Of a stretch of DNA of 64,000 nucleotides, positions 8,128-64,000 are shown piece after piece. The position numbers and the translations under genes are program-made. The notes below the pieces were generated by a model. It was not told the origin of the DNA, did no database searches, and saw nothing but the letters and a program-made list of their open reading frames with translations. Source of the DNA: an uncultured Actinomycetota bacterium. GTDB lineage: Bacteria > Actinomycetota > Actinomycetes > Mycobacteriales > Mycobacteriaceae. The stretch is taken from positions 18,401-82,400 of the forward strand of contig CAVQSK010000029.1 of assembly GCA_963715885.1 (NCBI GenBank). Direction: 5' to 3'. Within the stretch, counting starts at the first letter, position 1; each line of letters starts with the position of its first letter.

Positions 8128-8283
8128 TTAGTAGTAGTGGCGCCGGCCGCCTACAGGGCGTCCCGCTGAACCCAGGATCGCGAGAACGACGCCGATGATC
8201 AGCAGGACTATTCCGATGGTCCACAAAATCGATATCTTCAGCAAGAATCCGGCAATGAGCAAGATGATTCCAAGAACGATCAC
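8128..8283 (-). CDS. Small membrane protein, DUF6131-like (51 aa)
   Basis: MIVLGIILLIAGFLLKISILWTIGIVLLIIGVVLAILGSAGRPVGGRRHYY; below the ORF-track cutoff. Confidence 0.8.
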   Translation of the reverse strand: MIVLGIILLIAGFLLKISILWTIGIVLLIIGVVLAILGSAGRPVGGRRHYY

Positions 8284-42723: not shown

Positions 42724-44728
42724 TTACGTTTGCCCTAGCCTGAAGGGACCAACGATGCCGCCTGCCAAATGAGGGCTGTTATCCGAAGGCAAGGGCCATA
42801 TCGGCCCCGCCGAGGGGAGCGACTCGGCAACCATGGCGGACTCGCCAGTTGATGCCTCCTCGGTATCTGGCGCAATGACGGCGGGATCGATTCGGAGAAC
42901 CGCGTAGCCCGCAACTGCGCCGGCACCGAATCCCGGGGCGAAGACCCGGGTCGGCTTGGTGATCACTTGATCGCGGACCGCGTCGTGGATTGCCAGCGGA
43001 ATGCTCGCCGAGGAGGCATTGCCCACCCGCTCGATGTTGAAATACAGCTGATCCGGGGACAGACCGGCGGCCTTTGCCAGGTCGATCACCATGGTCTTGT
43101 TGGCCTGGTGCGGGATGATCAGTTCGATGCTGGCCAGCAGCGACTCTGCGTCCCCATCCGGGTCGGGCAGGGCCCTGATGTCGTCGAGCATCTGCATGAG
43201 GTAGCGCCCGGCGAGCGCCTTGACCTCCGGGCCGTAGACCGTGATGTTGTTGGCGAACGCGGGGTTGGGCCACAGGATCGAGTTGACCTGGCTGGTCGGA
43301 CCGCTGGCATAGGTCTGCATGTACTCGATATCCGGCGGCGAACCCTCGGGCGCGACGCCGAGGACAATGGCGGACGCGCCGTCGCCGAAGATCATCCGGG
43401 ACGGCCGGACGTTGCCGATCTTGTTGGAGAACTTTTCCGCGCACACCACGAGCACCGGCCGCCGCACCAGCTGGAGAATTCTCGTGGCCTCGGCCAGCCC
43501 GTAGCTCAGGCCGGCGCACGCGGCGACGAGGTCGAACGAGCAGTGGGTCTGCTGGATGCCCAACTGGCCGGAGAGCCAGGTCGCGACCGACGGTATCAGC
43601 CGATCGCTGGTGCAGGTGCACACGATAACCGCGCCGACCTGGTCTGGACCCACCTGAGCGTGAGCCAGCGCCGACCGGGCGGCCCGCAACGAGATGTCCT
43701 CGAGGCTGTCGGCGGTGTAACGGCGCGCCTCGATGCCGGTCTTGGCACTGATCTCGTCGGCTGACATGGGCGACCAGTTGTAGGCACTGTTGCGGATCAG
43801 GTCCTCGTTGGTGCACACCCGTTCACCGTGCACTGCGGCGATGGCCTCGATGCGAGGTTGCACTGCCAAATCCTGGCGCACGTTGAGGGCGGGGTAGGGC
43901 CGAATGGGCGCGTGAACCTCGGGGGCGACCGTGTGGGTCTTCTTCGGGGCGGGCCCCGAAGCGACGCGGGACAGAAACTGGTGGACATCAAGATCACGCG
44001 GATGGAACACCACCACGTAGTCGTCGTCGCGCAACTCTCCGACAGGGACCAGGGCGGCCTCGCTACGCGACCACGGGTACTGGTTGTGCAGGACCATCGA
44101 CCAGCGGCGCAGCGCCTCCAGCTCGGCCACATCCTCGTTGCAGTCGATGATCTCGGCGTAGCTGTACCGGCGGAAGTCGGGGTCATATCGATTCAGCCGC
44201 AGAGTTTGATTAGCGGGGTCAGACAGCAGATCGGCAACCGTGGGTACCACGGCCGACAGCTTGGTCGCGTGGTTCTTACGATGGCCGAACACGTCGAAGA
44301 GGATCTCGAAGATGCTGTCCTCGACCTCGGCGTCCCACTGCGCCGCAAGACCCGGATAGGCAGACTGCACCGCGGTCACCTTCGTTTCGCGATCTTCCCA
44401 CGGCGTCTGGATGGGGATGTAGATGTCGTCGCGGCTACGCGGCACGTCGGCCCACCGGGTGGGCCGGACGTCGTACATCGTTAGTTTGTAAGCGGTTGGC
44501 CCAGAACAGGTTGAGCGCCATGTCCCGCATCAGTTCGAACTTGCTTTGATAGGCGCCGGTCTTGATCCGCTCGAGGATATCGCTCCCCGTGGGCGCCTTG
44601 GAATCGAAGTCCCGCCGGACGACCGCGTCGAGCTGCTCGAGGCTTTCGAAGGTGGAGAAGTCGAGATCAGGAAAACAATTGGCGGGAAAAACGATCTTGC
44701 CATGCTTGTTGATTTCGAAGGACTGCAT
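42724..44728 (-). CDS. Ketoacyl-ACP synthase III-like protein with long N-terminal extension, +1 frameshift near 44491
   Basis: AACAG (Cys), IPHQAN (His), GNASSASIP (Asn). The 97-aa upstream ORF joins as NRYKLTMYDVRP if one base is removed. Confidence 0.82.
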
Positions 44729-44805
44729 TGCCGATCACCTGTTTCGATGGGACGTTGGGCGGGTTGGATATAGCGCTAGGCGATGAGGGAGCGGACCGAC
44801 AGTCA

Positions 44806-44920
44806 TCACATGTCCAGACCGCCATTTACCCCCCAAACCTGCCCAGTGATATAGCCCGAGGCGTCCGCAGCCAGGAAGTGCACCACTCGTGCGACCTCCC
44901 ACGGTTGGGCCAGCCGACAC
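44806..44920 (-). pseudogene. C-terminal remnant of a FabG/PhaB-type SDR reductase
   Basis: RLAQPWEVARVVHFLAADASGYITGQVWGVNGGLDM*; 5' part replaced by IS DNA. Confidence 0.75.
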
Positions 44921-44924
44921 CGAC

Positions 44925-45600
44925 GTTGGGATTTGATTCTGCCGGCCGAGCTGTGGGTGTTGCCGGTCGAGTTGGGTCGGCGCCGTTGGATGATCCGGTG
45001 TTTTTCGCGCCGTTCGCCGCGTGTTTCGATGCCCGGATCGGTGCCCCGTCGATACCGATGGAGGCCTATCTGCGGTTGATGTTTCTGAAGTTCCGGTGCG
45101 GGCTCGGCCATGAGTCGTTGTGCCGGGAGGTGGCCGATTCCATTCCCCGGCAACGGTTTTACCGGTTTCCGTTCGGGACCCGGTACCGCACTCGACCACT
45201 CGATGAAAATCACCACCCAGCGCGGCGACGATGCAGTCCCAGGGTTGAATTTGGCGGTGCTGGCCAAGGCGGCCGCCGCGAAGCTGCTGCGCACCGACAG
45301 GTCCGCGCCACACCACCGTTGTGGCCGCTGATGTGGCGTATCCGATCGATTCGGGTCTGTTCGCCAAGGCGATCGGCTCGATGGCCCGCACCGTGGTGCG
45401 GATCAAAGCCGGCGCGAGCGCACTCAGACCGGTGATCGGCGGCGTTCGGCGGGGCGGCGAGCCCGCTCGATCGCCGCCAAGCTGCGGCTGACGGCAGCAC
45501 CGTGACCATGCCCAGGCCGGGTTGCGCCGTATAACCGGTGAACTGGCCGGGATCCTGAAGCCGCCGGTCGCGAGGCCACCGCTGTGCTACTTTGCCATTG
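44925..45600 (+). mobile_element. Degenerate transposase (ISNCY/IS5-like)
   Basis: WDLILPAEL, LDDPVFFAPF, PSIPMEAYLRLMFLKFR.GLG.ESLCREV.DSI; multiply frameshifted. Confidence 0.75.
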
Positions 45601-48823: not shown

Positions 48824-50578
48824 TCAGTACTTCCGTTCCATCGGTTGATACCGGGTCTGCACCACCGGCTTGTAGTCCAGTCGGATGTCGGAGAGCAGCT
48901 CAGCGCCCTGCTTGTAGGCCATGGTGTGGCGCATGTAGTTGGTGTCGTCGCGGTTGGGGTAGTCCTCGCGGGCATGCCCGCCGCGGGACTCCTTGCGGTT
49001 GAGGGCGCCGACCACCGTCACCTCGGCAAGTTCGAGCAAAAAGCCCAGCTCGATCGCTTCCAGCAGGTCGCTGTTGTAGCGTTTGCCTTTGTCGTGCACC
49101 GTGATTCGGGAGTAGCGCTCCTTGAGCGCGTGGATATCGGTGAGCGCCTGCTTGAGTGTTTCCTCGGTGCGGAACACCGCGGCGTTGTTGTCCATCGACT
49201 GTTGCAGGGCGCCGCGGATGTCGGCGACGCGCTCGTTGCCGTGCTCGGAGAGGATGTCGCCGACCCAGGAGACCACCATGGCGGCCGGGTCGGTCGGCAT
49301 GGCGACGTGGTCGTGTCCCAACGCGTAGTTGGCCGCGGCGATGCCGGCGCGACGCCCGAACACGTTGATGTCCAGCAGCGAGTTGGTGCCCAGCCGGTTG
49401 GCGCCGTGCACCGACACACACGCGCACTCGCCCGCCGCGTACAAGCCGGGCACCACGGTGGTGTTGTCGCGCAACACGTTGCCGGTGATCGTGGTGGGGA
49501 TGCCGCCCATCACGTAGTGACACGTCGGGTAGACCGGCACCAGCTCGGTGACCGGGTCCACGCCCAGGTAGGTGCGGGCGAACTCGGTGATGTCGGGCAG
49601 TTTCGCCTCGAGCACGTCGGCGCCCAGATGGCGCACGTCGATGTAGACGTAGTCCTTGTGCGGGCCGGCGCCGCGGCCTTCGAGCACCTCGAGCACCATC
49701 GAGCGCGCGACGATGTCGCGCGGAGCCAGGTCGACGATGGTCGGCGCGTAGCGCTCCATGAAGCGCTCACCGTCGCCGTTGAGCAGCCGGCCGCCCTCAC
49801 CACGGACCGCCTCGGAGATCAGGATGCCCAGCCCGGCCAGACCCGTCGGGTGGAACTGGTGAAACTCCATGTCCTCCAACGGAAGTCCCTTGCCGAACAC
49901 GATGCCCAGCCCGTCGCCGGTCAGGGTGTGGGCGTTGGAGGTGGTCTTATACATCCGGCCAGACCCGCCGGTGGCGAACACGATCGCCTTGGCATGAAAG
50001 ACGTGAATGTCGCCGGTGGCCAGCTCGTAGGCGATGACACCGGTCGCCACCGGCCCGCCGGGAGTTTCCGTCATCGCGATGTCCAGGGCGTAGAACTCGT
50101 TGAAGAACTCGACGTCGTGCTTGACGCAGTTCTGATACAGCGTCTGCAGGATCATGTGGCCGGTGCGGTCGGCCGCGTAACAGGCCCGGCGCACCGGCGC
50201 CTTGCCGTGGTCGCGGGTGTGCCCGCCGAACCGGCGCTGGTCGATGCGGCCCTCGGGGGTGCGGTTGAACGGCATCCCCATCTTTTCCAGGTCGAGCACC
50301 GCGTCGATGGCTTCCTTGCACATGATCTCCACGGCGTCCTGGTCGGCGAGGTAGTCGCCGCCCTTGACGGTGTCGAAGGTGTGCCACTCCCAGTTGTCCT
50401 CTTCGACGTTGGCCAGCGCCGCGCACATGCCGCCCTGCGCCGCGCCGGTGTGGCTGCGGGTCGGGTAGAGCTTGGTCAGCACCGCGGTGCGCGCCCGCGG
50501 ACCGGCCTCGACCGCGGCGCGCATGCCCGCGCCGCCGGCACCGACGATCACGACGTCGTAGCGATGTTCGGCAATCAC
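48824..50578 (-). CDS. sdhA: Succinate dehydrogenase flavoprotein subunit
   Basis: GAGGAG, RSHTGAAQGG (covalent FAD His), QFHPTG, HYVMGG, HGANRLG, RKESRGGH. Confidence 0.96.
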   Translation of the reverse strand: MIAEHRYDVVIVGAGGAGMRAAVEAGPRARTAVLTKLYPTRSHTGAAQGGMCAALANVEEDNWEWHTFDTVKGGDYLADQDAVEIMCKEAIDAVLDLEKMGMPFNRTPEGRIDQRRFGGHTRDHGKAPVRRACYAADRTGHMILQTLYQNCVKHDVEFFNEFYALDIAMTETPGGPVATGVIAYELATGDIHVFHAKAIVFATGGSGRMYKTTSNAHTLTGDGLGIVFGKGLPLEDMEFHQFHPTGLAGLGILISEAVRGEGGRLLNGDGERFMERYAPTIVDLAPRDIVARSMVLEVLEGRGAGPHKDYVYIDVRHLGADVLEAKLPDITEFARTYLGVDPVTELVPVYPTCHYVMGGIPTTITGNVLRDNTTVVPGLYAAGECACVSVHGANRLGTNSLLDINVFGRRAGIAAANYALGHDHVAMPTDPAAMVVSWVGDILSEHGNERVADIRGALQQSMDNNAAVFRTEETLKQALTDIHALKERYSRITVHDKGKRYNSDLLEAIELGFLLELAEVTVVGALNRKESRGGHAREDYPNRDDTNYMRHTMAYKQGAELLSDIRLDYKPVVQTRYQPMERKY

Positions 50579-50581
50579 GAC

Positions 50582-51079
50582 CTAACCCCCGATGTTCGCG
50601 TCGAAGGTAACCAGCACGTAGGTGCCCAGCACCAACGTGAACCCGGTTGCCAGCAGCAGCAGCGAATTCAGATAGAACTTGGTGGTGTTCTTGCGGGCGT
50701 AGTCACCGATGATCGTGCGCATGCCGTTGGCGCCGTGCACCATCGCCAGCCACAGCAGGGCCATATCCCAGATCTGCCAGAACGGCGAGGCCCAGCGCTG
50801 CGCGACGTAGTTGAAATCGATGCGGTACACCCCGTCGCTCCACATCAGCATGATGAACAGGTGGCCGAGCGCGAGAAAGACGAGGGCGACACCAGAAAAT
50901 CTCATGAACAGCCACGCGTACTTCTCGAAGTACGGGACGCCCCTGGGCCGCCGCGGTGCACGCGGATGGTCCAGGCCGGCCGGGCGGTCGTGCTCTTTTT
51001 CCAGCACCGGTGCCACCCGGCCCTCGCGGTGATGCGGTGTCCAGGGCACTCCCGCCGACCCACCCGCTGGCGCGCTCAC
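50582..51079 (-). CDS. sdhD: Succinate dehydrogenase hydrophobic anchor
   Basis: EKYAWLFMRFSG, GHLFIM, VHGANGMRTIIGDY. Confidence 0.92.
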   Translation of the reverse strand: MSAPAGGSAGVPWTPHHREGRVAPVLEKEHDRPAGLDHPRAPRRPRGVPYFEKYAWLFMRFSGVALVFLALGHLFIMLMWSDGVYRIDFNYVAQRWASPFWQIWDMALLWLAMVHGANGMRTIIGDYARKNTTKFYLNSLLLLATGFTLVLGTYVLVTFDANIGG

Positions 51080-51504
51080 CAGAACCGCTCCGCCATGTGC
51101 ATGCCGATCACACCCAGCGCCGGGATGAAGACCGCCAAAAAGACGCCGACCACGATCCACAGCATCACCCGCTGATAGCGCGGGCCATGCTGCCAGAAGT
51201 CGATCAGGATGATCCGGATGCCGTTCAGCCCGTGGTAGAGCACCGCGACGACCAACCCGATCTCCATCAACCCGACCAGCGGCGTCTTGTACGTCTCGAT
51301 GACTTCGTTGTAGGCCTGCGGACTGACCCGCACCAGCGCGGTGTCCAGCACGTGCACGAACAGGAAGAAAAAGATCGTCGCCCCGGTAATGCGGTGCAGC
51401 ACCCACGACCACATACCGGGATCACCGCGATAAAGGGTGCGCCGAGGCGACGGTTTGGTTCGCGGAGCCGGTACCGCCGGACTCGCGGGTGTCGCAGTAC
51501 TCAT
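51076..51504 (-). CDS. sdhC: Succinate dehydrogenase cytochrome b556 subunit
   Basis: YRGDPGMWSWVLHRITG, HVLDT, YHGLNGIR. Confidence 0.92.
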   Translation of the reverse strand: MSTATPASPAVPAPRTKPSPRRTLYRGDPGMWSWVLHRITGATIFFFLFVHVLDTALVRVSPQAYNEVIETYKTPLVGLMEIGLVVAVLYHGLNGIRIILIDFWQHGPRYQRVMLWIVVGVFLAVFIPALGVIGMHMAERFW

Positions 51505-51960
51505 CGGGGCCCCCAACGCCATCGGTGAACGGAATCCACATCTGCACTCTTGACGATTACGACACCGTCGGCATCGGCGACGACGACATCGCCGGGTGCG
51601 ACCACCACGCTGCCGACGGCTACCGGCTCGCCGAGTCGGCCGGGGCCGTTCTTGTAGGGCCCCGTAGGAGTGACGTTGCGTGCTAAGACGGGTAGTCCGA
51701 GCGCGGCCAGGGCGTCGGTATCGCGAATGGCGCCGTCGATGACGAAGCCTACTAATCCGAGCATTTTCGCTCGGATTCCGATCAGGTTGCCGATGAGCGC
51801 GCGCGTTGTGTCCCCGGAGCCGTTGACTACCAATACATCTCCAGATTTGGCCGCATCGAATGCTCTGTGGAGGAAGAGATTGTCACCGAGCGCCGTCCAT
51901 ACGGTGAATGCACGGCCGGCCAATTGCGCGCCTGCCCAGAGGGGGTGACGGGTACGGTCA
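51501..51960 (-). pseudogene. RraA/HMG-aldolase family protein, N-terminally damaged
   Basis: LAGRAFTV..GDNL..H, GDVLVV, ALIGN, DGAIRD, VVAPGDVVVADADGVV; its stop overlaps the sdhC ATG. Confidence 0.75.
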
Positions 51961-52141
51961 CAGTGCGTCGAACGAGCTCGTCGCAAACCACACACGTGAG
52001 TACCGAAACATTTCCGCCCACCCTTCCAACCCGTGCCCAAATTTCAGTTTCGTTGTCCACACGAGGTCCAATTGGGCATCGGTTTGAGACACATCTGCGG
52101 CCTGCTTGACGGTGTTGGGCGGGACGCCAGGCCGGTCACCT

Positions 52142-52500
52142 TCACCCCTTCTCGACAACACGTGTCTTGTAGAGGCTGGCGACGACGGTGGTGATGACCA
52201 GTGTCACCACGATGACCGCCAGGCTGAACAGGGTGGGGATCTCGGGGACGTTAACGTGCTCACCGCCGTTGATGTACTCCGTGAGCCAGCCCGCGAAGAA
52301 TTCCAGCCCGTACTGCCCGCAGTGGAAGAACCAAACCCAAAGGCTGAAAGCACGGCGAGTCCTACATAGAACGACAACGCAATCGCGCATTCGCGCTTCG
52401 TCGGTTGACGGAGTCGGCGGGCGCTAAACACCACGTCGAATAGCAGGACGGCCATCGTCACACCCAAGATGACGAACCACTCGAGCTGGACCTGTGCATC
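52142..52500 (-). pseudogene. TerC-family membrane protein remnant with large internal deletion
   Basis: GQYGLEFFAGWLTEY joined directly to INGGEHVNVPEIPTLFSL. Confidence 0.72.
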
Positions 52501-52664
52501 AGGCGCGCCCGGTCGTCGCGAACGCAGGTCTCTTCCACCGCGATGGCGCGGCGCGGTCGTCCGATGACGGTCGACGTGATGACGACACCGCGGCGAAGGA
52601 ATACTCCCCTCCGCCTCCCAGTAACGACGCCGACATGCACTGCGACCGCTCGAAAGCGTGGCTG

Positions 52665-54068
52665 TTAGAAAAGTACAACGAACACCAGCCAGAGAATGAC
52701 CGGTGCAATAACGGTAACCGCCGCGGCGTAAAGCAATAGCTGTCGGAAGAATTTGGTCTTGTCTACCCCTTGGGCGTTGGCCAAAACGAGTGCGCCGTTG
52801 GTGGAGAACGGGCTGACGTCGACGATGGTCGACGACACCGCAAGCGCGGCGACGAAGCCCACCGCGCCGACCCCAGTGCCTCCTTGCAGGAACGGGACAG
52901 CGAGCGGGATGATCGATCCCAGCACAGCCGTGGATGAAGCGAAGGCCGAGACGATGGCGCCGATGATGCACAGCAGCAGCGCCGCGATCAGCGGAGACGC
53001 GAGACCTGCGACGCTGTCGCCAACGTAATCGATGGTGCCCATGGCGGTAAGCACGCCGACGTAGGTGCTGACCCCGGTGATGAGCAGGATCTCCGGCCAG
53101 GTGATCTGCCCGACGGCTCGTTTCTGCGAATGCGGTGACATCAGCGCCAGTACCAAGGCCACCGTCAGCGCAGTGAAACCGATGTCGGTGTCGAAGACCA
53201 CGGTCAACGCGGCGAAGGTGGCAAGTCCGACCAGCGTGAGGATCTGGTACGGACGCGAGTGACCGGCAGGTGTCTCGGGGGGCTCGTCGACCAGAAGGCT
53301 ATCGGCGTCACCTTGTACTTCGTGTTTCCACTCGGTGAGGGCCTGCCCCTCGGCGTCTCCATATACTCCTGCGCCGCCCTGCGGGGTGGCCACGGTGACG
53401 TGACCTGGGGGAGTCAGCGTGGGGTCGTCGCCATCGTCTGGAAGCCCATCACCGGCGCGGCGTTTCATCAATTTGCGGCCGCCCAGCACGATAAACAGAG
53501 CGATCGACACCACGAGGTTAACGGTGAAGCTGGCCAAGAAGACGATGATCTGATCGAACGGCAGACCGGCGCCCTCGACAACCTTGGCCGTGATGCCACC
53601 GTAGATGCTGATCGGGGAGAAACCACCGGCCTGCGCGCCGTGAATCACTAGCAGACCCATCATCAACGGGCTGATTTTGTACTGGAAGGCAAAACCCAAA
53701 GCGATCGGTGCAACGATGGCCACGGCGCCTGGGCTCACCGCGCCGACGGAGGTCAGGACAGCGGCAATCAAGAACATGATCCACGGGATCGCCCAGATCC
53801 GACCGCGAACAGCGCGAACGGCGAGATCAACCAGCCAGTCGATTGTCCCGTTGTTCTGCGCGATGGCGAACAGGTACGTGATGCCAACCAGGGTCAGGAA
53901 CAGCCCGCCGGGGAAGCCGTCGATGACATCGTCCGCTGCCATGTCGGCTACCAACGTGCCAACCAGGAACGCGCCGACGAACGCCAGGACACCCATGTTG
54001 ACTGGGACCAGCGTCGCCACAACGAACATGGCCACCAGCGCCAGGATCGAGATCAGCTCGGGCGACAT
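52665..54068 (-). CDS. MatC-family dicarboxylate carrier (SLC13-like permease)
   Basis: VNMGVLAF, FPGGLFLTLVGITYLFAIAQNNGTIDWL, GGFSPIS, DVSPFSTNGAL. Confidence 0.85.
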   Translation of the reverse strand: MSPELISILALVAMFVVATLVPVNMGVLAFVGAFLVGTLVADMAADDVIDGFPGGLFLTLVGITYLFAIAQNNGTIDWLVDLAVRAVRGRIWAIPWIMFLIAAVLTSVGAVSPGAVAIVAPIALGFAFQYKISPLMMGLLVIHGAQAGGFSPISIYGGITAKVVEGAGLPFDQIIVFLASFTVNLVVSIALFIVLGGRKLMKRRAGDGLPDDGDDPTLTPPGHVTVATPQGGAGVYGDAEGQALTEWKHEVQGDADSLLVDEPPETPAGHSRPYQILTLVGLATFAALTVVFDTDIGFTALTVALVLALMSPHSQKRAVGQITWPEILLITGVSTYVGVLTAMGTIDYVGDSVAGLASPLIAALLLCIIGAIVSAFASSTAVLGSIIPLAVPFLQGGTGVGAVGFVAALAVSSTIVDVSPFSTNGALVLANAQGVDKTKFFRQLLLYAAAVTVIAPVILWLVFVVLF

Positions 54069-54112
54069 AGCCACCTCCCCAGTGCCGCGGGACCTTGATC
54101 CGCGGGCCATTG

Positions 54113-54143
54113 AATCAGTAAGTTGATTGGGCTGAGTCAACTC
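54113..54143 (-). promoter_or_regulatory. Shared operator, copy 1 (GAGTTGACTC-N5-AATCAACTTACTGATT on minus strand)
   Basis: The 16-mer at 54113-54128 is the exact reverse complement of those at 58919 and 61427. Confidence 0.75.
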
Positions 54144-54202
54144 GATTCGGCGTCGGGAGTCAACGCTTTCGTCATCGGAAGCTCTTGTCTGGAGGTATTG
54201 GG

Positions 54203-55390
54203 ATGCCCGGTCCATTGGATGGCATTACGGTCGTCGATCTTTCCAGGGCGCTGGCCGGCCCGCATGCAGCGATGATGCTCGGGGACCTCGGAGCGCGGGT
54301 GATCAAGGTCGAGTCGCCGGGCACCGGCGACGACACGCGTGGGTGGGGCCCACCGTTTGTTGGGCCAGAAGATGCACGCGAGTCGACGTACTTCCTGTCC
54401 TGCAACCGTAATAAAGAGTCGATCGTCCTCGACCTGAAGAGCGATGACGGAAAGACCACCCTCACCAGGCTGATCCGGGCGTGCGATGTTCTGGTCGAGA
54501 ATTTCCGGCCCGGTGTGCTCGACCGCCTCGGGTTCCCAGCAGATCGGCTTCGCGAGCTGAACCCTCGGCTCGTTGTCCTGGCAATCTCCGGCTTCGGGCA
54601 CGACGGCCCACAGGGCGGCAGGGCGGGTTACGACCAGATCGCCCAGGGAGAGGCGGGTCTGATGAGCCTAACCGGGCCTTCTCCCGACGAACCGACCCGA
54701 ATCGGGGTCCCCATCGGCGATCTGCTGGCCGGAATGTACGGAGCGTACGGCGTGGTCGCAGCGTTGTACGAGCGCGCACAGACCGGCCACGGCGGCATCG
54801 TCCGGACCAGTTTGTTGGCCGCGATTGTCGGCGTCCATGCCTTCCAGGGCACCCGCTATACCGTGGCCGGTGAGGTTCCGCACGCCCAGGGCAACCATCA
54901 TCCGTCGCTTGCACCGTACGGCTCCTTCCGCTGCCGCGACGCGATCGTGCAGGTCGCCGTCGGCAGCGACGGCCTGTGGCAGGCATTCGCCCCGCTTGTC
55001 GGTATCGATCCGGCCGACACGCTGTTCGCCGACAACGCGGTTCGGGTCCAGCACCGGCAGGCGTTGATCGAACTGATCAACGACGCGTTCGCCGATCGTC
55101 CGGTCGTTGAACTTCTCGCCGACCTCGACAAGGCTGGCATCCCGGCGGGCGAGGTCAGAACTCTCGACCGGGTATATGAGTGGGATCAAACCCAGTCGCA
55201 GGGACTGCTGCTCGAGGTCGATCACTCGACCCTGGGGAAGATCAACCTGCCCGGACCGCCGCTCCGGTTTGACGCGCACTCCGTCACCGCCGATCACCGA
55301 CCTCCGCCCACCCTCGGGCAGCACAACGAAACAGTGCGCCATTGGCTCGACGAGCTCGAACAGCCGTCCCGAGCGGGGTCGACAGTGTGA
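54203..55390 (+). CDS. Class III CoA-transferase (CaiB/BaiF)
   Basis: DLSRALAGP, RVIKVE, GDDTR, NRNKES, ENFRPG, GYDQIAQ, PIGDLLAG. Confidence 0.92.
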   Translation: MPGPLDGITVVDLSRALAGPHAAMMLGDLGARVIKVESPGTGDDTRGWGPPFVGPEDARESTYFLSCNRNKESIVLDLKSDDGKTTLTRLIRACDVLVENFRPGVLDRLGFPADRLRELNPRLVVLAISGFGHDGPQGGRAGYDQIAQGEAGLMSLTGPSPDEPTRIGVPIGDLLAGMYGAYGVVAALYERAQTGHGGIVRTSLLAAIVGVHAFQGTRYTVAGEVPHAQGNHHPSLAPYGSFRCRDAIVQVAVGSDGLWQAFAPLVGIDPADTLFADNAVRVQHRQALIELINDAFADRPVVELLADLDKAGIPAGEVRTLDRVYEWDQTQSQGLLLEVDHSTLGKINLPGPPLRFDAHSVTADHRPPPTLGQHNETVRHWLDELEQPSRAGSTV

Positions 55391-56877
55391 GTGACCGCCT
55401 GAGCGCCGAGGAGTTGATTGAACTTGTACTTGATCCAGGCTCGTTTGAGCGTTGGGACGAGCCGGTGGTCCCAACGCCTGGCCTGGATCCGGGCTATGAA
55501 GCGGAGCTGACGCGCGCCCGAACGAAGACAGGGTTGGACGAGGCTGTGGTGACCGGTGAGGGCCGCATCGCCGGTCGGCGGATCGCGCTAATCGCCTGTG
55601 AGTTCGGCTTTCTTGCAGGTTCCATCGGTGTCGCCGCCGCCCAGCGTCTTGTCCGGGCGATCGTACGAGCCACCGAGGAACGCCTTCCGCTACTGGCAGC
55701 GCCCACCTCCGGGGGAACACGGATGCAGGAGGGAACAATCGCATTCGTCCAGATGGTGAAGATCAGCATCGCGGTCGTTCGACACCGCTCCGCCGGATTG
55801 CCCTACCTGGTGTATATCCGGAACCCCACCACCGGTGGGGTCTTCGCGTCATGGGGCTCACTGGGTCATGTCACCGTCGCCGAGCCAGGTGCTTTGATCG
55901 GCTTCCTCGGTCCCAGAGTCTACGAGGCGTTGCACGGTGAAGCATTCCCGGTCGGCGTCCAGGTCGCCGAAAACCTGTTGGAACAAGGGGTCATTGATGC
56001 CGTTATCCCGGCCGGTCAGCTGGCCGCGGTGGCCGAGCGAGCGTTGGACGTCCTCGACTACCACCGCACCACGATTCGACCGTTACCTGAGATCGAAGAC
56101 GAACCGGTCTCTGATGTCCCGGCGTGGGATTCGATCCAGCGATCCCGGCAGTCAGGTCGGCCGGGGATCAGGGAATTGATGGAGTATGCCGGCACCAAAA
56201 TCACCCCATTGGAAGGCACTGGCGCGGGCGAGATGGAGCCCGGCTTGTACTGCGCACTGGTCAAGTTCGGACAAGCGCCATGCGTCGTCCTCGGCCACGA
56301 CCGGCAAGCCGAAGAACTCGGCCCGATGGGCCCGGCCGGTCTTCGAGAGGCCAGGCGAGGATTCGCGCTAGCCAGAGAGCTCGGACTTCCGGTGGTGACT
56401 GTGATAGATACCGCTGGTCTGGCACTGTCCAAGGAGGCCGAAGAAGGTGGACTCGCCGGCGAGATCGCCCGCTGTCTGGGCGAATTGGTGATGCTGCCCG
56501 CACCGACGGTCTGCCTGATATTGGGCCAAGGATCCGGCGGTGGCGCCTTGGCCTTGCTGCCAGCGGACCGTGTGATCAGCACTCAACACGGTTGGTTGTC
56601 TCCGCTACCTCCCGAAGGGGCTTCCGCGATCATGTACCGAACCACCGATCGAGCGCCCGAGATCGCCCAGAGCCAGGGCGTTCGATCGCTCGATCTCCTG
56701 CGTGACGGGATCGTTGATCGAGTCATTGCTGAGGAGCCCGACGCCACCCAAGCGCCAGAAGAATTGATGCGGAGGCTTGGGCGTGTCCTCGAACAAGAGA
56801 TATCAGCTTTGCTTTTGACCGACCCGGACAAGCGCTTGGCGGACCGGCTGGACCGGTATCACCGTCTGGGGGTCTAG
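55387..56877 (+). CDS. Fused beta/alpha acyl-CoA carboxyltransferase (AccD3-like)
   Basis: FGFLAGSIG, SGGTRMQEG, PTTGGVFASW, GFLGPRV, VIDTAG, GQGSGGGA; no biotin carboxylase or carrier gene nearby. Confidence 0.88.
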   Translation: MSDRLSAEELIELVLDPGSFERWDEPVVPTPGLDPGYEAELTRARTKTGLDEAVVTGEGRIAGRRIALIACEFGFLAGSIGVAAAQRLVRAIVRATEERLPLLAAPTSGGTRMQEGTIAFVQMVKISIAVVRHRSAGLPYLVYIRNPTTGGVFASWGSLGHVTVAEPGALIGFLGPRVYEALHGEAFPVGVQVAENLLEQGVIDAVIPAGQLAAVAERALDVLDYHRTTIRPLPEIEDEPVSDVPAWDSIQRSRQSGRPGIRELMEYAGTKITPLEGTGAGEMEPGLYCALVKFGQAPCVVLGHDRQAEELGPMGPAGLREARRGFALARELGLPVVTVIDTAGLALSKEAEEGGLAGEIARCLGELVMLPAPTVCLILGQGSGGGALALLPADRVISTQHGWLSPLPPEGASAIMYRTTDRAPEIAQSQGVRSLDLLRDGIVDRVIAEEPDATQAPEELMRRLGRVLEQEISALLLTDPDKRLADRLDRYHRLGV

Positions 56878-57108
56878 GTGACAGGGCGGACAAAGTGCGA
56901 CCTCGATGACATTGGCCCGCAGCAGCAAATGGATGCATGAGCTGGTGTCACATGAGGGGTTGACGTCCCTGGCCAGCATCGGCGCGACCATCGTCCTCGA
57001 CCGGTGGAGGTTGGCCGACTGTGTGGTGCTGCGCTCATGGTCGCCCACGCTCGCCCGCCAGATCGGGGCTGCGGCACCATCCCCGGGTAGATTGGGATGA
57101 ACGAATAG

Positions 57109-57945
57109 GTGCCCGCATATGGCGCTAGGTCTTCACGCCCGAACGGACGATCCATGATGAGAACTAGGGTTACGTCTGGCACCCCAGACGACGGCGACCC
57201 CAACTCGGTTGTCGATCGGCCGCTGCGATCGGGGCCCCCGAAAGCAGCCCAACTCATCGTCGCTGATCTACGTCGGCAAATCATTAGGGGGGACCTGCGC
57301 GGTGATGACTCACTTCCCTCTGAGAACGAATTGATGCGGCTCTATGGCGTGTCTCGTCCCACGCTGCGCGAGGCGCTGCGTGTGCTTGAATTCGAAGGAT
57401 TGCTGACAGTGCGACGCGGAGCCAGGGGGGGTTCCACGGTCCATGTCCCCACTGGGGAGGCGGCGGCGCGTTCGATGGCGCTCGTGTTGGAGCACCGCGG
57501 CGCAACTCTTGCCGATGTGGTCGAGGCCCGATCGGCCATCGAACCTGCCTGCGCCAGATTGGTCGCCGAGCGCGGCAAGAAGGCGCATCTGCTCCGCTTG
57601 AAGCAGGACCTCGCATCCAGTGCCAACGGGGGTTCGGATAGTACGCAATCCAGCGGCTTCCACGAACTACTCGTTGACCTCGCTGGCAACCAAACCCTGA
57701 CGCTGATGTATGGGATGCTTCGTCTTGTCCTGAACGAGTCCACCACGGGCGTGCAGCTCGTCGAGTGCACGGACACCCGCAATCTGACCGGGCGACGACG
57801 GGCGCACGACGCCCACCAGCATCTGGTCGATCTGATCGAGAGGAAGGACGGCGATCAGGCCGAGGGATTTTGGGCTGAGCATCTTCGCGGGGGCTATCTC
57901 GCCCGTAAACCGCCGGGCGCAACGCCTTTGAATTTCAGTGCATGA
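57109..57945 (+). CDS. FadR/GntR-family regulator (start uncertain)
   Basis: LPSENELMRLYGVSRPTLREALRVL, FHELL..AGNQTL, HQHLVDLI. Confidence 0.88.
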   Translation: MPAYGARSSRPNGRSMMRTRVTSGTPDDGDPNSVVDRPLRSGPPKAAQLIVADLRRQIIRGDLRGDDSLPSENELMRLYGVSRPTLREALRVLEFEGLLTVRRGARGGSTVHVPTGEAAARSMALVLEHRGATLADVVEARSAIEPACARLVAERGKKAHLLRLKQDLASSANGGSDSTQSSGFHELLVDLAGNQTLTLMYGMLRLVLNESTTGVQLVECTDTRNLTGRRRAHDAHQHLVDLIERKDGDQAEGFWAEHLRGGYLARKPPGATPLNFSA

Positions 57946-57959
57946 GATCGCCGGGTTCG

Positions 57960-58450
57960 GCCGTTCTGGCCGCGGTGAGTATGGGGTCGTGGCTCTGATC
58001 GGACATCAGTGCATAGATGCCGTCCGCGCGGTGGTGGGCCGACCGTACGGCCTCGTTCCCGTAGCCCCTGACAAGGTCGACGATCTCTCGGGGGGGTGGG
58101 GAAGTGTCCGGTGGCCTGGAGGCGGTAGGAGTGCGATTCCAGGCAGGAAGCCATCGAGCCGTTCATGCAGGAGTGCGGATAGATAGATCAGCGCCGGATT
58201 GCCGAATATCGCGAAGGTCGCTGTGTGAAAGGACATTTCGCGTTGGATGAGCTGCTCGATGGTCAGCGTAGGGATGGGTTCCATGTCGGCGCAGACCTGC
58301 AGTGCACCGATGCGGTCGTTTATGGGAGGTTTGGCCAGCGCCCACAAGCGCGGAATGGAGCGCTGCGTTCGCTTGAAACCGTTCGGCGGTCGTCGCCCGA
58401 GGGTCGGGCAGCGCCGTTCGGTGGGAGCGGGGCGATCGTTCACGGCTTTG
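57960..58450 (-). pseudogene. Possible decayed GntR FCD-domain remnant
   Basis: EMSFHTATFAIFGNPAL and EIVDLV fragments in different frames. Confidence 0.35.
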
Positions 58451-58661
58451 CTTCATAACAGGTCGATCCTCCGGTTGACAGGTAGGTGTCGAAAACCAGA
58501 GGTCTTGTCTGCCCTGTGGGCCGAGGGCGCCGGGTGCCTGCACTGTGCAATCGAACCGTGATGATGACGCCGACGCGGGGGACTACTCCCCTCCATGTAG
58601 TAGAAACTGTCCTGGAGAACGACACCGATGGCCAGATGACGTGCGTCACACTGACCTGTTT

Positions 58662-58937
58662 GTCCCATGCTCGCTGCCGCACTGACCGCACACCCCGGCG
58701 GCTCTTTCGGGGTGAGGACCCCGACTTGCGAGTGGGAGTTTTGCCCACCACCTAACGCACGACGATCGAAAGACGAACCCAATTCGTTGGGTCCCGGAAG
58801 TTGGGTCGCCACCTGTTGTGCGCGGACGACCCCACGCCTAAACGATCGACGCGCGGTACCGACAAGTCTTGATCGCCGAAGCATTGACTGATCCGGATCA
58901 CCCGAGTTCACTTAACGCAATCAACTTACTGATTAAT
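58662..58937 (+). repeat. ~270-bp duplicated upstream region, copy A (before gltA)
   Basis: Collinear with 61185-61445 from GTCCCATGCTCGCTGC to AATCAACTTACTGATTAAT, with scattered substitutions and indels. Confidence 0.9.
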
Positions 58938-59031
58938 GCGGAACGCCTAGCGCCTACCTTCCGTTACCGGACGACGGCTCGATCCGTGGAGCGAAGTCCC
59001 CGGGTTGACTCAACGAGATGGAGCGAACGAG

Positions 59032-60456
59032 ATGTCCAAGGTCACACACATCGTCCCACCAGCGGGTACACCCACCGAAGGCGAGCCCGACCCAACGGCG
59101 GATAAGCCCTCCACCTCCGAAACATCGAGGATGCCGACGTCCGACCAGATTTCGGGGCCGGACCCTTCAGGGGCACAGCGTGCCGTCATCCACTACGGTG
59201 ACGGAGAACTCGAACTGAAAGTTGTCCCAGCGACAGAAGGCGCCCCCGGCGTCGAAATATCCAAACTGCTGACGACACTGGGGGTCATCACGCTCGATCC
59301 CGGGTTCACCAACACCGGCTCGACCACCTCGGCCATCACCTACATTGACGGCGATGCCGGCATCCTGCGCTACCGCGGGTACCCAATCGAACAGCTCGCT
59401 CAGTCATCCAGCTTCCTGGAAACCAGTTACCTCCTGATTTACGGCGAACTGCCGACCAGCCCCGACCTGGAGGCCTTTACCAACCGGATCAGCCGGCACA
59501 CGATGCTGCACGAAGACCTCAAACGGTTCTTCGACGGGTTCCCGCGCAACGCCCACCCGATGCCTGTCCTGTCGAGCGCGGTCGGCGCGCTGTCCACCTT
59601 CTACCAGGACTCGCTGGATCCGTTTAACCCCGAACAGGTGGACCTGTCCACCATCCGGTTGCTGGCGAAACTGCCCACCATCGCTGCCTACGCCTACAAG
59701 AAGTCGGTCGGCCAGCCCCTGCTGTACCCAGACAACTCGCTCAGTCTGGTCGAGAATTTCCTCCGGATGTCGTTCGGGTTCCCGGCCGAGCCCTACGAGG
59801 TCAATCCGAAGTTGGCCAAGGCCCTCGATCAGCTGCTGATATTGCACGCTGACCACGAACAAAACTGTTCGACATCCACAGTGCGACTTGCGGGGTCGTC
59901 AAATGCGAACCTGTTCGCGTCGATCTCCGCCGGGATCAACGCCCTGTTCGGACCCTTGCATGGCGGGGCGAACCAAGCGGTGCTGGAGATGCTCGAGTCC
60001 ATCCGTCGCGGCGGTGGCACCGTCAACGAGTTTGTCCAAAAAGTCAAGAACCAAGAGCCCGGCGTCAAGCTGATGGGCTTCGGCCATCGTGTCTACAAAA
60101 ACTACGACCCACGTGCGGCGCTGGTCAAAACAACAGCGCACGAGGTGCTCGACGACCTCGGCGGCGACGACGAACTGCTTGACCTCGCCCAACAATTGGA
60201 GGAAGTCGCCTTGGCGGACGAGTACTTCATCACCCGCAACCTCTATCCCAATGTGGATTTTTACACCGGGCTGATCTATAAGGCCATGGGGTTCCCCACC
60301 CCGATGTTCACGGTGCTGTTCGCGTTGGGTCGCCTACCCGGCTGGATCGCCCAGTGGCGAGAAATGATCAACGACCCGGCCACCAAGATCGGCCGACCGC
60401 GGCAGGTTTACACCGGGTACACCGAGCGCGACTACATCCCCACAGCAGATCGCTAG
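59032..60456 (+). CDS. gltA: Citrate synthase (GltA2-type; start could be later)
   Basis: DPGFTNTGS, AHPMPVL, HADHEQNCST, GPLHGGAN, MGFGHRVYK, YPNVDFY. Confidence 0.95.
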   Translation: MSKVTHIVPPAGTPTEGEPDPTADKPSTSETSRMPTSDQISGPDPSGAQRAVIHYGDGELELKVVPATEGAPGVEISKLLTTLGVITLDPGFTNTGSTTSAITYIDGDAGILRYRGYPIEQLAQSSSFLETSYLLIYGELPTSPDLEAFTNRISRHTMLHEDLKRFFDGFPRNAHPMPVLSSAVGALSTFYQDSLDPFNPEQVDLSTIRLLAKLPTIAAYAYKKSVGQPLLYPDNSLSLVENFLRMSFGFPAEPYEVNPKLAKALDQLLILHADHEQNCSTSTVRLAGSSNANLFASISAGINALFGPLHGGANQAVLEMLESIRRGGGTVNEFVQKVKNQEPGVKLMGFGHRVYKNYDPRAALVKTTAHEVLDDLGGDDELLDLAQQLEEVALADEYFITRNLYPNVDFYTGLIYKAMGFPTPMFTVLFALGRLPGWIAQWREMINDPATKIGRPRQVYTGYTERDYIPTADR

Positions 60457-60576
60457 CCTTCAGCGCCGACAGACGTCGATCACTGCTGAGACCGCTATGA
60501 TGCCTGCCTACGCAGCGGGACATCGCGATTGCAGACGGCATAGCGTGACGGATACCGAGGTTCGGTGGGTCGCAGA

Positions 60577-61153
60577 ATGAATCGATTCCATCGGGCGCTA
60601 TTGCGCCAGCGCGAAGTGGGAGAAACTGATGCTGGAAAGCCTCCTGCCGGACGCTCTGGGCGGGGTCTCCCTCGGAGACAGCGTGCTGGAGCTAGGACCA
60701 GGGCCTGGCCTGACTACCCTGGCCTGGCACACATCTCCGCGGGTCACGGCCGTCGAGATCGACGGGAAACTAGCACAGATGGCGCGGGAACGGACGCGCT
60801 CGTTGGGGCAACGTCGAGGTGGTCGAAGGGGATGCGACTGCGCTGCCATTCGATGACGCGCGGTTCGCTCTGTCGTCTGCATGACTATGCTGCACCATCT
60901 GCATCACGCGGCGGCGCAAGATCGGCTGTTGGCCGAGGCGCGTCGCGTACTGCTGCCGGGTGGAGTGTTATGCGGGTCGGACAATCTCGGACAACGGGGA
61001 TCAGGTTTCCGGTTGATCCACCTCGGTGACAGTCGGACAGTTGTCGACCCGGAGACGCTTCCGGCCCGGCTGACGAGCGCCGGGTTCGATCGTGTCGATG
61101 TTAGGACTGGTTCGCGCTTGGCCTTTCACGAATACACCAGCAAGACTGTCTGA
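60577..61153 (+). pseudogene. Class I SAM methyltransferase with three frameshifts
   Basis: VLELGPGPG, TAVEID, GDATALPF, MLHHL; shifts near 60595, 60805 and 60867. Confidence 0.75.
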
Positions 61154-61184
61154 CCGATTAACGGCGAGAATAGAGCGACGAGTC

Positions 61185-61445
61185 GTCCCATGCTCGCTGC
61201 TGCGCTGACCGCGCACCCCTGCGGCTCTTTTGAGCGCCCGACATGCGAGTGGGGTTTTGCCCACCTAACGCACGACGATCGACGAACCCATTCCTTGATC
61301 CCGGAAGTTGGATCGCCACCTGTTGTGCGGGGACGGCCCCACGTCTAGACGATCGACGCGCGGTACCGACAAGGTCTTGACCCCAGAAGCATTGACTGAT
61401 CCGGATCACGCGAGTTGACTCGACACAATCAACTTACTGATTAAT
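61185..61445 (+). repeat. ~260-bp duplicated upstream region, copy B (before sucC)
   Basis: Collinear with 58662-58937. Confidence 0.9.
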
Positions 61446-61714
61446 AGGCTGTGCGGATCGCCCACCTTAAGGAGGTCTTGATGTCCAGTGACCTGACATG
61501 ACTTGTCGAGCTACGCAAGGTCAGTGGGGCGGCATGCCGGCAATCTGCCCCACGATGTCGAGAAGATCGCCGCAAGCATGGCCCAACACCCCTCACGGTG
61601 AGTTGACAAGCCGGGCCCGCAGAAATCCAGCGATCTGGCGGACCCAGACCCGGGACAAGACCGCCATAGCTGGGGACAACTGCACGGATCGCCACCGCCA
61701 AGTTAGGAGAACAC

Positions 61715-62884
61715 GTGGATCTGTACGAGTACCAGGCCAAGGAACTGTTCGCCGCGCACGGCGTCCCGGCTCCTGCCGGCATCGTCGCCCGCACCGTCGA
61801 CGAAGCGGTTGAGGCCGCGACCCGGTTGGGCACCCCCGTGATGGTGAAATCACAAGTCAAGATGGGTGGCCGCGGCAAGGCCGGCGGGGTGAAGTTCGCC
61901 AAGACGATCGATGATGTCCGTTCGCATGCCGACAACATCCTCGGTCTGGACATCAAAGGTCATATCACCCGGCAGATCCTGATCACCCCGGCCAGCGACA
62001 TCGCCGAGGAGTACTACGTCTCGTTCCTGCTGGACCGCTCCAACCGCACCTTCCTAGCGATGGCCACCCGCGAGGGCGGCATGGACATAGAGCAACTCGC
62101 CGAGGAACGCCCGGAGGCGCTGGCCAAGATCCCGGTCAGCGCACTTACCGGGATGGACGCCGCCAAGGCCGCCGAGATTGCCGACGCCGGCAAGTTCCCC
62201 GACGAGGTTCGTGAACAGATCATCGCCATCCTGGTCGGGCTCTGGGACGCATTCGTCTCGGAGGACGCCACCCTGGTCGAGGTCAACCCTCTGGTGAAGA
62301 TCAAGGACGGCACCGTGGTCGCGCTGGACGGCAAGGTCTCCCTCGACGAGAACGCCGACTTCCGTCACCCGGACCACGCAGCCCTCGCGGACAGCTCCGC
62401 GGAGAACCCGCTCGAGGTGGAGGCGAAGGAAAAGGGCTTGAACTACGTGAAACTCGACGGCCAGATCGGGGTCATCGGCAACGGTGCGGGCCTGGTGATG
62501 TCGACCCTGGACGTGGTGGCTTACGCCGGGGAATCGCACGGTGGGTTGACCCCGGCGAACTTCCTGGACATCGGGGGCGGCGCGAGCGCCGAGGTGATGG
62601 CCAACGGCCTGCACATCATCCTGTCCGATCCCGATGTCAAGGCGGTGTTTGTCAACGTGTTCGGCGGGATCACGGCGTGTGATGCGGTGGCGAACGGCAT
62701 CGTTGGTGCGCTGGAGATGCTGGGCGACGAGGCCACCAAGCCGCTCGTGGTCCGTCTCGACGGGAACAACGTCGAGGAGGGTCGGCGCATCCTGAACGAG
62801 GCTGCGCACCCACTGGTGACGCAGGCCGAGACCATGGACAAGGGCGCCGACAAGGCCGCCGAGCTTGCGAATGCTGGAGTCTGA
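61715..62884 (+). CDS. sucC: Succinate-CoA ligase beta subunit
   Basis: [47 protein letters not shown]. Confidence 0.95.
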
Positions 62885-62887
62885 ACA

Positions 62888-63769
62888 ATGGCCATTTTTC
62901 TGAACGAATCCTCCCGCGTCATCGTGCAGGGTATGACCGGTGCCGAGGGCACCAGGCACACCCGCCGGATGATCGCCTCCGGCACCACCGTTGTCGGCGG
63001 GGTGAACGCCCGAAAGGCCGGGACCAGCGTCGATTTCGACGGCACCGCGGTGCCGGTGTTCGGTTCTGTGGCCGAGGCGATGGACAAGACCGGCGCTGAT
63101 GTCTCGGTGCTGTTCGTGCCGCCCGCGTTCACCAAGGACGCGATCATCGAGGCGATCGACGCCGGCATCGGGCTGGCCGTGGTCATCACCGAGGGTGTCC
63201 CCGTGCACGACTCCGCGGTCGCCTGGGCGCACGCGGTGGCAACCGGCAACAAAACCCGGATCATCGGGCCGAACTGTCCCGGCATCATCTCGCCCGGCAA
63301 GTCCAACGCGGGCATCATCCCGGCCAACATCACCGGCCCCGGCAAGCTCGGTCTGGTGTCGAAGTCCGGCACCCTGACCTACCAGTTGATGTACGAACTG
63401 AGGGATCTCGGGTTCTCCACCGCGATCGGCATCGGTGGTGATCCGATCATCGGAACCACCCACATCGACGCGCTGCAGGCGTTCGAGGCCGACCCGGAGA
63501 CCGAGGCCATCGTGATGATCGGTGAAATCGGCGGTGATGCCGAGGAACGTGCGGCCGCGTTCATCGCCGACAACGTCACGAAGCCGGTCGTCGGGTACGT
63601 CGCCGGGTTCACCGCTCCCGAGGGTAAGACCATGGGCCACGCCGGAGCCATCGTCTCCGGCTCGTCGGGTACCGCCCAGGCAAAGAAGGACGCGCTCGAG
63701 GCCGCCGGGGTAAAGGTCGGCAAGACACCATCGGAAACCGCGCTGATTGTCCACCACAGCCTTGGTTGA
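62888..63769 (+). CDS. sucD: Succinate-CoA ligase alpha subunit
   Basis: [33 protein letters not shown] (phospho-His). Confidence 0.95.
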
Positions 63770-63794
63770 ACGAACACGGTGAGGTGAAGGTCAT

Positions 63795-64000
63795 GGCGGG
63801 TACCCCAGACCTCCGTTCCTAGGGTCGAAGCTGCGGAACTTCCTGCTGGGCGGTGGGGGCTGGCCCTACCTGCTGGTGCCGTTCATCCCGATCGCCATCG
63901 GGCTTAGAAAATCCCACGCTGACGCGCCGATAGTTTTCGCCGCTTTGGCCTGTGATACCCACCGCAGCTCTGCTGGGGCGAGCGACCGAGGACCTTGCCT
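63795..64000 (+). pseudogene. Ca2+/H+ antiporter (CAX-type) N-terminus, frameshifted, runs off the window
   Basis: YLLVPFIPIAIGL...PIVFAA, then in another frame IPTAALLGRATEDLA. Confidence 0.6.

Follow-up and report, generated by a model that had tools for sequence, protein, structure and literature searches.

A 16-bp pseudo-palindrome repeated in a mycobacterial island, a probable operator of the island's own GntR/FadR-type regulator

What reads the AT-rich 16-mer AATCAACTTACTGATT, which stands three times unchanged before the genes of one island in a high-GC mycobacterial genome? We examined this in a stretch of 64,000 nucleotides, the window (G000:C29:18401-82400; genome of 6.97 Mb, 65.8% G+C), and coordinates below are window positions unless a contig is named. 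The 16-mer is probably the operator of the GntR/FadR-type regulator encoded in the same island (57154-57945), a reading drawn from sequence comparison. The observation itself was confirmed to be real and non-random. The three exact copies lie at 54113-54128 (minus strand), 58919-58934 and 61427-61442 (both plus strand), where the original prediction had placed them, and only 0.02 matches were expected in shuffles of the window, even allowing up to 3 mismatches.

Scanning the whole genome, as had been proposed, revealed no exact copy beyond these three, which all lie in one island. Only 9 other matches were found at up to 3 mismatches, and they followed no pattern. Two such matches, at C31:106341 (2 mismatches) and at 8254-8269 in the window (3 mismatches), fall within apparent coding frames whose products were not identified, and were judged to be chance. 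No additional degenerate site was found at up to 5 mismatches in the gaps of the island, upstream of rraA/sdh or gntR. The 16-mer has a G+C content of 25%, in agreement with its earlier description as AT-rich. It had also been called a palindrome, which holds for its complementary 5-nt arms, AATCA and TGATT, but not for its 6-nt centre, ACTTAC, which is asymmetric and takes a single orientation relative to the upstream element at all copies. This element, GAGTT(G/C)ACT, was indeed found at the same distance from each copy, exactly 6 nt. Further upstream, after exactly 17 nt, each of the three sites has a second, distal TTGACT, and the resulting composite, TTGACT-N17-TT[GC]ACT, is found nowhere else in the genome, with about 0.2 estimated by chance from base composition. 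The shared module, TTGACT-N17-TT(G/C)ACT-N6-AATCAACTTACTGATT, is about 51 bp and longer than first described.

Copy 1 is located in the 134-bp region common to matC, encoding a dicarboxylate carrier, and the divergent caiB-carboxyltransferase-gntR genes, and it ends 44 nt before the matC ATG. Its proximal TTGACT (54135-54140, minus strand) is contained in GAGTTGACTC, and its distal TTGACT is at 54158-54163 on the same strand. Copies 2 and 3 precede the next two transcription units. Copy 2 ends 97 nt upstream of the citrate synthase (gltA) ATG at 59032, following a distal TTGACT at 58884-58889 and a proximal TTCACT at 58907-58912 (58884-58912, plus strand), while copy 3 ends 272 nt upstream of the sucC start at 61715, following TTGACT elements at 61392-61397 and 61415-61420 (61392-61420, plus strand). 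Thus far the earlier assignment of the copies to three promoters stands as to their position upstream of matC, gltA and sucC; that these are promoters, we infer.

The regulator matched the GntR and FCD domains of Pfam (1.9e-17 and 2.5e-17, respectively, in 57109-57945), with NanR, PdhR, LldR and GlcC as its best NCBIfam and PDB relatives and no NCBIfam equivalog above its cut-off. Its start had been set at a GTG at 57109; the ATG at 57154 was taken instead, as in the orthologs. A metagenome protein search retrieved twelve orthologs with 67-98% identity, after which identity dropped to about 52%. A search of the regulator against genome contigs gave only alphaproteobacterial homologs (26-29% identity), and a plasmid collection gave only weak single-gene matches (72-77% identity). 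We compared eight orthologous islands, one from another Mycobacterium species (G316) and seven from metagenome contigs (L055-L058, L079/L080 and L082). One more contig, L081, has a regulator ortholog of 75% identity and ends before the matC/caiB region.

The motif is present upstream of the orthologous matC/caiB pair at all eight islands; the absence there that had been named beforehand as a refutation was thus not observed. Sixteen further sites were read in them, 7 before matC, 2 before gltA and 7 before sucC, and in 15 of these the 16-mer was identical at all 16 positions; the sucC site of L058, AATCAGCATACTGATT, differs at two centre positions. Both TTGAC elements and the 16-mer are constant in the alignments, and the distal TTGACT of copy 1 is kept in all eight matC/caiB intergenic regions; the sequence of the N6 and N17 spacers and of the 3′ flank, by contrast, varies freely. 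The 16-mer is therefore more conserved than the adjoining intergenic DNA of orthologous loci, which bears out the earlier impression that the motif itself is conserved. The island of G316 is rearranged, with the motif followed by sucC-sucD-gltA as one unit and matC divergent from caiB-carboxyltransferase-gntR, and the exact 16-mer is found at both promoters. The metagenome contigs carry the same gene set, to which some add 2-oxoglutarate dehydrogenase, malate dehydrogenase-like and sdh genes, and the smallest islands retain only matC, caiB (with or without the carboxyltransferase), gntR and the 16-mer site. GntR is the sole regulator gene present in every orthologous island with gene calls. 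Its winged helix-turn-helix (wHTH) segment is nearly invariant among the orthologs, despite their overall identity of 66-98%.

Among 301 genomes of the genus, an ortholog of the regulator with more than 70% identity was detected only in G000 and G316 (the next genome showed 47-48%), and the exact 16-mer was detected in the same two genomes, the carriers of both island and GntR. Since co-occurrence alone cannot separate GntR from the other island genes, we examined near-matches elsewhere. The 299 island-less genomes contained 39 near-matches with up to 2 mismatches, all of which were fetched. No GntR homolog lies within 1.5 kb of 35 of them, and each of the remaining 4, in four other genomes (L064, L072, L078 and L068), precedes the start of an FCD-GntR gene by 20-45 bp. 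About 0.02 near-matches would be expected within 50 bp upstream of such genes at random placement, assuming about 45 FadR-like genes per mycobacterial genome (PMC2018728). The genes at L064, L072 (= L048) and L078 are orthologs of each other, so that together with L068 at least two lineages are represented. The related 16-mers next to GntR genes in other Mycobacterium genomes read AATCCACTAACTGATT, AATCAACTAACTGTTT and AATCATCTTACTCATT, and one of them lies in a promoter region that is apparently shared with an aldehyde-dehydrogenase-like gene, as judged from its first codons.

The loci of 20 GntR homologs, excluding the island and its G316 ortholog, had 7 sites at up to 4 mismatches against about 0.9 expected, which is roughly eight-fold above the genome rate for motif-like sites; one of the 7 is inside coding sequence. 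The genome's own GntR paralog of 54% identity (C29:98091-98849) has GATCAGGTAGCTGATT 61 bp upstream of its start. The common form of the GntR-adjacent sites is AATCAAC-TW-ACTGATT, and those of L064, L072, L078 and L068 hint at a wider operator class in the genus. The paralog locus, C29:98091-99487 (L083:16092-17488, outside the window), adjoins stop-containing sucC-like fragments, a TauE gene and an FCD-only open reading frame (ORF), and a similar GntR with a sucC fragment is found at the start of contig C30, which suggests repeated or decayed copies of the island module at both places. The exact 16-mer was also sought in metagenomes, where the matches listed were judged to be chance. Five of these passed a screen for high G+C or an island protein, and they had neither a TTGACT element nor island genes, except for one weak carboxyltransferase match in a contig of 35% G+C.

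The original prediction had left the choice between the GntR and a global regulator. The local GntR is favoured by the confinement of the motif to the island, by the footprint and by the association with FCD-GntR genes, and a global regulator is not supported. CRP/GlxR-type global regulators recognise TGTGA-N6-TCACA. Like those sites, ours is 16 bp long, has 5-nt inverted arms 6 nt apart and is near genes of the tricarboxylic acid (TCA) cycle, but its arms are AATCA instead of TGTGA. With only three genomic sites, and none in relatives that do not carry the island, the 16-mer does not behave as a global regulon. It is most likely an ordinary local gene switch with a somewhat unusual, non-canonical sequence.

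How would such a switch operate? A GntR dimer would contact AATCA-N6-TGATT as a pseudo-palindrome, 6 nt downstream of the conserved −35-like TTGACT in the promoters of matC, citrate synthase and sucCD. On the other strand the bound site would cover the −10-like TAAGTT of the caiB-carboxyltransferase-gntR operon. RNA polymerase would thereby be occluded, and four transcription units, that of the regulator itself among them, would stay repressed until a ligand in the FCD domain releases GntR from the DNA. The ligand would probably be a dicarboxylate imported by MatC (malonate-like) or its coenzyme A (CoA) ester, a reasonable guess given the gene content, namely a MatC-type carrier, a CoA-transferase and a carboxyltransferase with a remote resemblance to malonate decarboxylase subunits. 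A single signal could then turn on the carrier, the CoA-transferase, the carboxyltransferase, the spare citrate synthase and succinyl-CoA synthetase, and perhaps a succinate dehydrogenase. All of this, from the binding and its regulatory sign to the promoter geometry and the ligand, we infer.

The geometry differs between the two directions. On the plus strand, copy 1 contains TAAGTT, located by eye 18 nt after a conserved TTGATC and facing caiB, and the GntR genes of L064, L072 and L078 repeat this arrangement, with the motif in that orientation followed by 20-40 nt to the start codon. In the direction of matC, gltA and sucC, the 16-mer begins 6 nt after the −35-like TTGACT, no TAnnnT is found 16-19 nt from either TTGACT, and a consensus promoter scan predicted no promoter at any of the three sites. 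The regulator is probably a repressor; its action by occlusion would follow from the position of the site and the usual behaviour of the subfamily, and is a guess, because a canonical −10 is missing at that distance.

The missing −10 is one of several points that weigh against an operator of the island GntR. The co-occurrence with the island, as said, singles out no gene among those it carries, and the GntR-adjacent near-matches belong to paralogs that share only 35-40% identity with the island regulator. A copied promoter, too, would be expected to show an asymmetric centre and an orientation fixed relative to TTGACT at matC, gltA and sucC. The 16-mer has no GT-N(2-3)-AC or TKGT..ACMA core, compared with the family operators (PMC4494728). 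Next to it, GAGTTGACTC agrees more closely with that core; it might serve as a further contact, or GntR might in fact bind there instead.

Another explanation takes the 51-bp module TTGACT-N17-TTSACT-N6-16-mer as a specialised promoter rather than a repressor operator. The 16-mer would then belong to the promoter or to the initially transcribed region and be read by RNA polymerase, either with an alternative sigma factor or with the help of an activator bound at the TTGACT repeats. Its fixed orientation and asymmetric centre would be accounted for, as would the failure to find a canonical −10 and the two-TTGACT composite, spaced exactly 17 nt, which is unique to the three sites and conserved across islands. 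However, the islands have neither a sigma factor gene nor a second regulator gene in common, sixteen invariant positions exceed what a core promoter usually needs, and the related 16-mers beside FCD-GntR genes elsewhere have no TTGACT elements and stand in the opposite orientation. We regard this explanation as unlikely.

It is rather improbable, too, that a host regulator outside the island, either global or a transcription factor with a degenerate motif, binds the 16-mer and that the GAGTTGACTC palindrome is the real GntR site. GAGTTGACTC does match NyGT-Nx-ACNy better than the 16-mer (PMC4494728), and the element is conserved 4 nt past the TTGACT hexamer; yet GAGTTGACTC occurs 9 times in the genome, mostly elsewhere. 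The 16-mer itself shows no excess of close variants outside its three sites, and the absence of the exact motif from the 299 island-less genomes would leave a host factor with no other strong targets.

A role in RNA is very improbable. The three mRNA leaders would each form a small 5′ hairpin, AAUCA / loop ACUUAC / UGAUU, that affects stability or translation; the arms are able to pair, both changes in L058 fall in the loop with the arms kept, and the distal TTGACT, if used as −35, would put the 16-mer at about +1. The hairpin is very weak, however, at −1.8 to −1.9 kcal/mol for two copies and about −4.9 for the third, where flanking bases also pair, and one copy was no different from shuffles. 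An invariant loop is not required by a simple hairpin, the GntR-adjacent variants break the stem, and no Rfam match was found at E <= 1 in 52000-64000.

Copies 2 and 3 lie at the 3′ end of a non-coding cassette of about 277 bp, present before gltA and sucC in two copies (58662-58960 and 61185-61468) of 86% identity, so that the repeat could be a non-functional leftover of a recent duplication. This is hardly credible: the matC copy has only about 37 bp in common with the other two, conservation upstream of sucC in G316, L056 and L058 is limited to about 55 bp around the motif, and the 16-mer is unchanged while neighbouring bases change. The full cassette is kept only in the closest relatives, L055 and L082, and was found neither in the rest of the genome nor in 60 genomes of the genus. 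As the distant islands keep only the 55 bp that correspond to the module and do not conserve the remaining cassette, it is the module that is conserved, and the cassette represents a duplication specific to this lineage. An interspersed repeat or miniature inverted-repeat transposable element was rejected: the 2 cassettes and the 3 copies of the 16-mer all fall within 7.3 kb, with none elsewhere in the genome, and the intergenic stretches have no further copies there either.

Returning to an operator of the island GntR, we compared it with known systems. PdhR, LldR and GlcC are FadR-subfamily GntR repressors that control organic-acid catabolism, and MatR of Rhizobium and MdcY of Acinetobacter are those for malonate. 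The recognition-helix segment of the island regulator, GVSRPTLREA, presumably resembles those of PdhR and LldR. As in the FadR subfamily, the locus encodes a regulator with GntR wHTH and FCD, the 16-bp site is a pseudo-palindrome rich in A/T, within the typical range of about 12-20 bp, and it precedes the operon of the regulator as well as neighbouring genes of catabolism and transport. A MatC-type carrier belongs to the regulon of the Rhizobium mat system, as it would in the island. Unlike these systems, the island regulon would include spare TCA enzymes (citrate synthase, SucCD and perhaps Sdh), and the island has a CoA-transferase and a carboxyltransferase instead of matA/matB or mdc genes. 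MatR is a member of the FadR/VanR group (PMC2018728).

In the published description, operators of the FadR subfamily are A/T-rich palindromes that contain TKGT/ACMA boxes or GT-N(0-3)-AC, NyGTM-N0-1-KACNy, with exceptions to the consensus such as NanR and BioR (PMC4494728). The 16-mer departs from them in its halves, AATCAAC and ACTGATT, and in its asymmetric centre: its forward strand, AATCA-AC-TT-AC-TGATT, has two AC on one strand and no GT..AC pair on either. The predicted operators of FadR-like GntR regulators in M. smegmatis are mostly (T)GGT-N-ACC(A) or GT..AC (Vindal et al. 2007, PMC2018728); they share the genus, the regulator subfamily and the autoregulatory position with our site, but none resembles the 16-mer. 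A full-text literature search found no paper with the 16-mer or its 14-nt core.

If confirmed, three promoters would make up the regulon of a mycobacterial FadR-type regulator that is so far uncharacterised, and its operator would depart from the GT..AC rule; this would be useful for regulon prediction in Mycobacterium, where to our knowledge dozens of FadR-like regulators have no known site. It would also offer a handle on why a mobile island carries its own citrate synthase, SucCD and Sdh beside a dicarboxylate carrier, and a search for the inducing compound could draw on the operator, the regulator and reporter fusions. A local repressor with its operator is a routine mechanism, and the spare TCA enzymes are the more unusual biology of the island. 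A bolder extension, which we hold to be doubtful, is that AATCAAC-TW-ACTGATT represents a non-canonical operator class without the GT..AC core, used by a clade of Mycobacterium FCD-GntR regulators. Its use in the island would put the spare citrate synthase, succinyl-CoA synthetase and succinate dehydrogenase under one sensor of a malonate-like dicarboxylate, perhaps as an inducible "spare TCA segment" that accompanies the uptake and CoA-activation of a poison of the housekeeping cycle.

Other elements were observed around the sites. The cassette begins with a terminator-like hairpin (61209-61224 in copy 3). In the gltA and sucC modules the two TTGACT elements flank a perfect palindrome of 12 bp, TGATCCGGATCA (58889-58900 and 61397-61408), to which a protein may bind as at a second site. 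G316 keeps this palindrome, L056 has one position of it changed (GGATCCGGATCA), L058 does not keep it, and the matC module has none. Between copy 1 and the ribosome-binding site of matC, a CCGCGG-N-CCGCGG inverted repeat surrounds GGATCAAGG (54086-54107) and is conserved in all eight islands; its opposite strand gives the −35-like hexamer TTGATC that faces caiB. From copy 3 to sucC extends a leader of about 270 nt (61443-61714), of similar length in all islands and with conserved patches, which may be structured or regulatory. In the closest relatives it has a strong Shine-Dalgarno sequence (AAGGAGG) followed by a 6-codon ORF, MSSDLT (about 61481-61501), and no conserved ORF of greater length was seen within it. 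The stretches between gntR, gltA and sucC (57946-59031 and 60457-61714, 1.1-1.25 kb) show a weak codon-position G+C signal and no Pfam-bearing ORFs; pseudogene remnants were sought there by self-tblastx and blastn, with nothing convincing.

As for the genes, matC (52665-54068, minus strand), the first gene downstream of copy 1, encodes a MatC-like carrier with MatC_N and CitMHS domains. It is followed on the same strand, after a gap of 624 bp with no 16-mer, by genes (48824-52040) for an RraA-like aldolase/(oxaloacetate) decarboxylase (51501-52040), an Sdh membrane anchor (50582-51412) and an SdhA flavoprotein (48824-50578), a second succinate dehydrogenase set that may be co-transcribed with matC. 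On the plus strand, the family III CoA-transferase of CaiB/BaiF type (54203-55390) has the succinate-glutarate, oxalate and mesaconate CoA-transferases as its closest NCBIfam models, all below their cut-offs. The fused AccD/AccA-like carboxyltransferase (55342-56877, start approximate) shows a distant likeness to malonate decarboxylase subunits, and gntR, encoding the candidate cognate protein, follows on the same strand. The type I citrate synthase (59032-60456, plus strand) scored above its NCBIfam cut-off; we call it accessory on account of its island context. The sucC (61715-62884) and sucD (62888-63769) genes, also on the plus strand, encode a second succinyl-CoA synthetase. The other sucCD pair is on contig C31, where SucC is 67% identical to that of the island and SucD clusters at >=90% identity with proteins of Mycobacterium ulcerans and M. 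alsense, which places the genome in Mycobacterium as GTDB defines the genus.

The gene sets compared here, together with the IS110, integrase or Mrr-type neighbours found on some of the metagenome contigs, suggest a mobile "accessory TCA" island. Neighbours of mobile or defence type, which surround it in different genomes, include a DUF772 transposase fragment, an Mrr-TPR protein, an IS110 transposase and a phage-type integrase (44728-45435 in the window; L083:2240-4036; L055, L057 and L082), consistent with horizontal transfer. The G+C content of the island is about 0.60 against a genome mean of 0.658.

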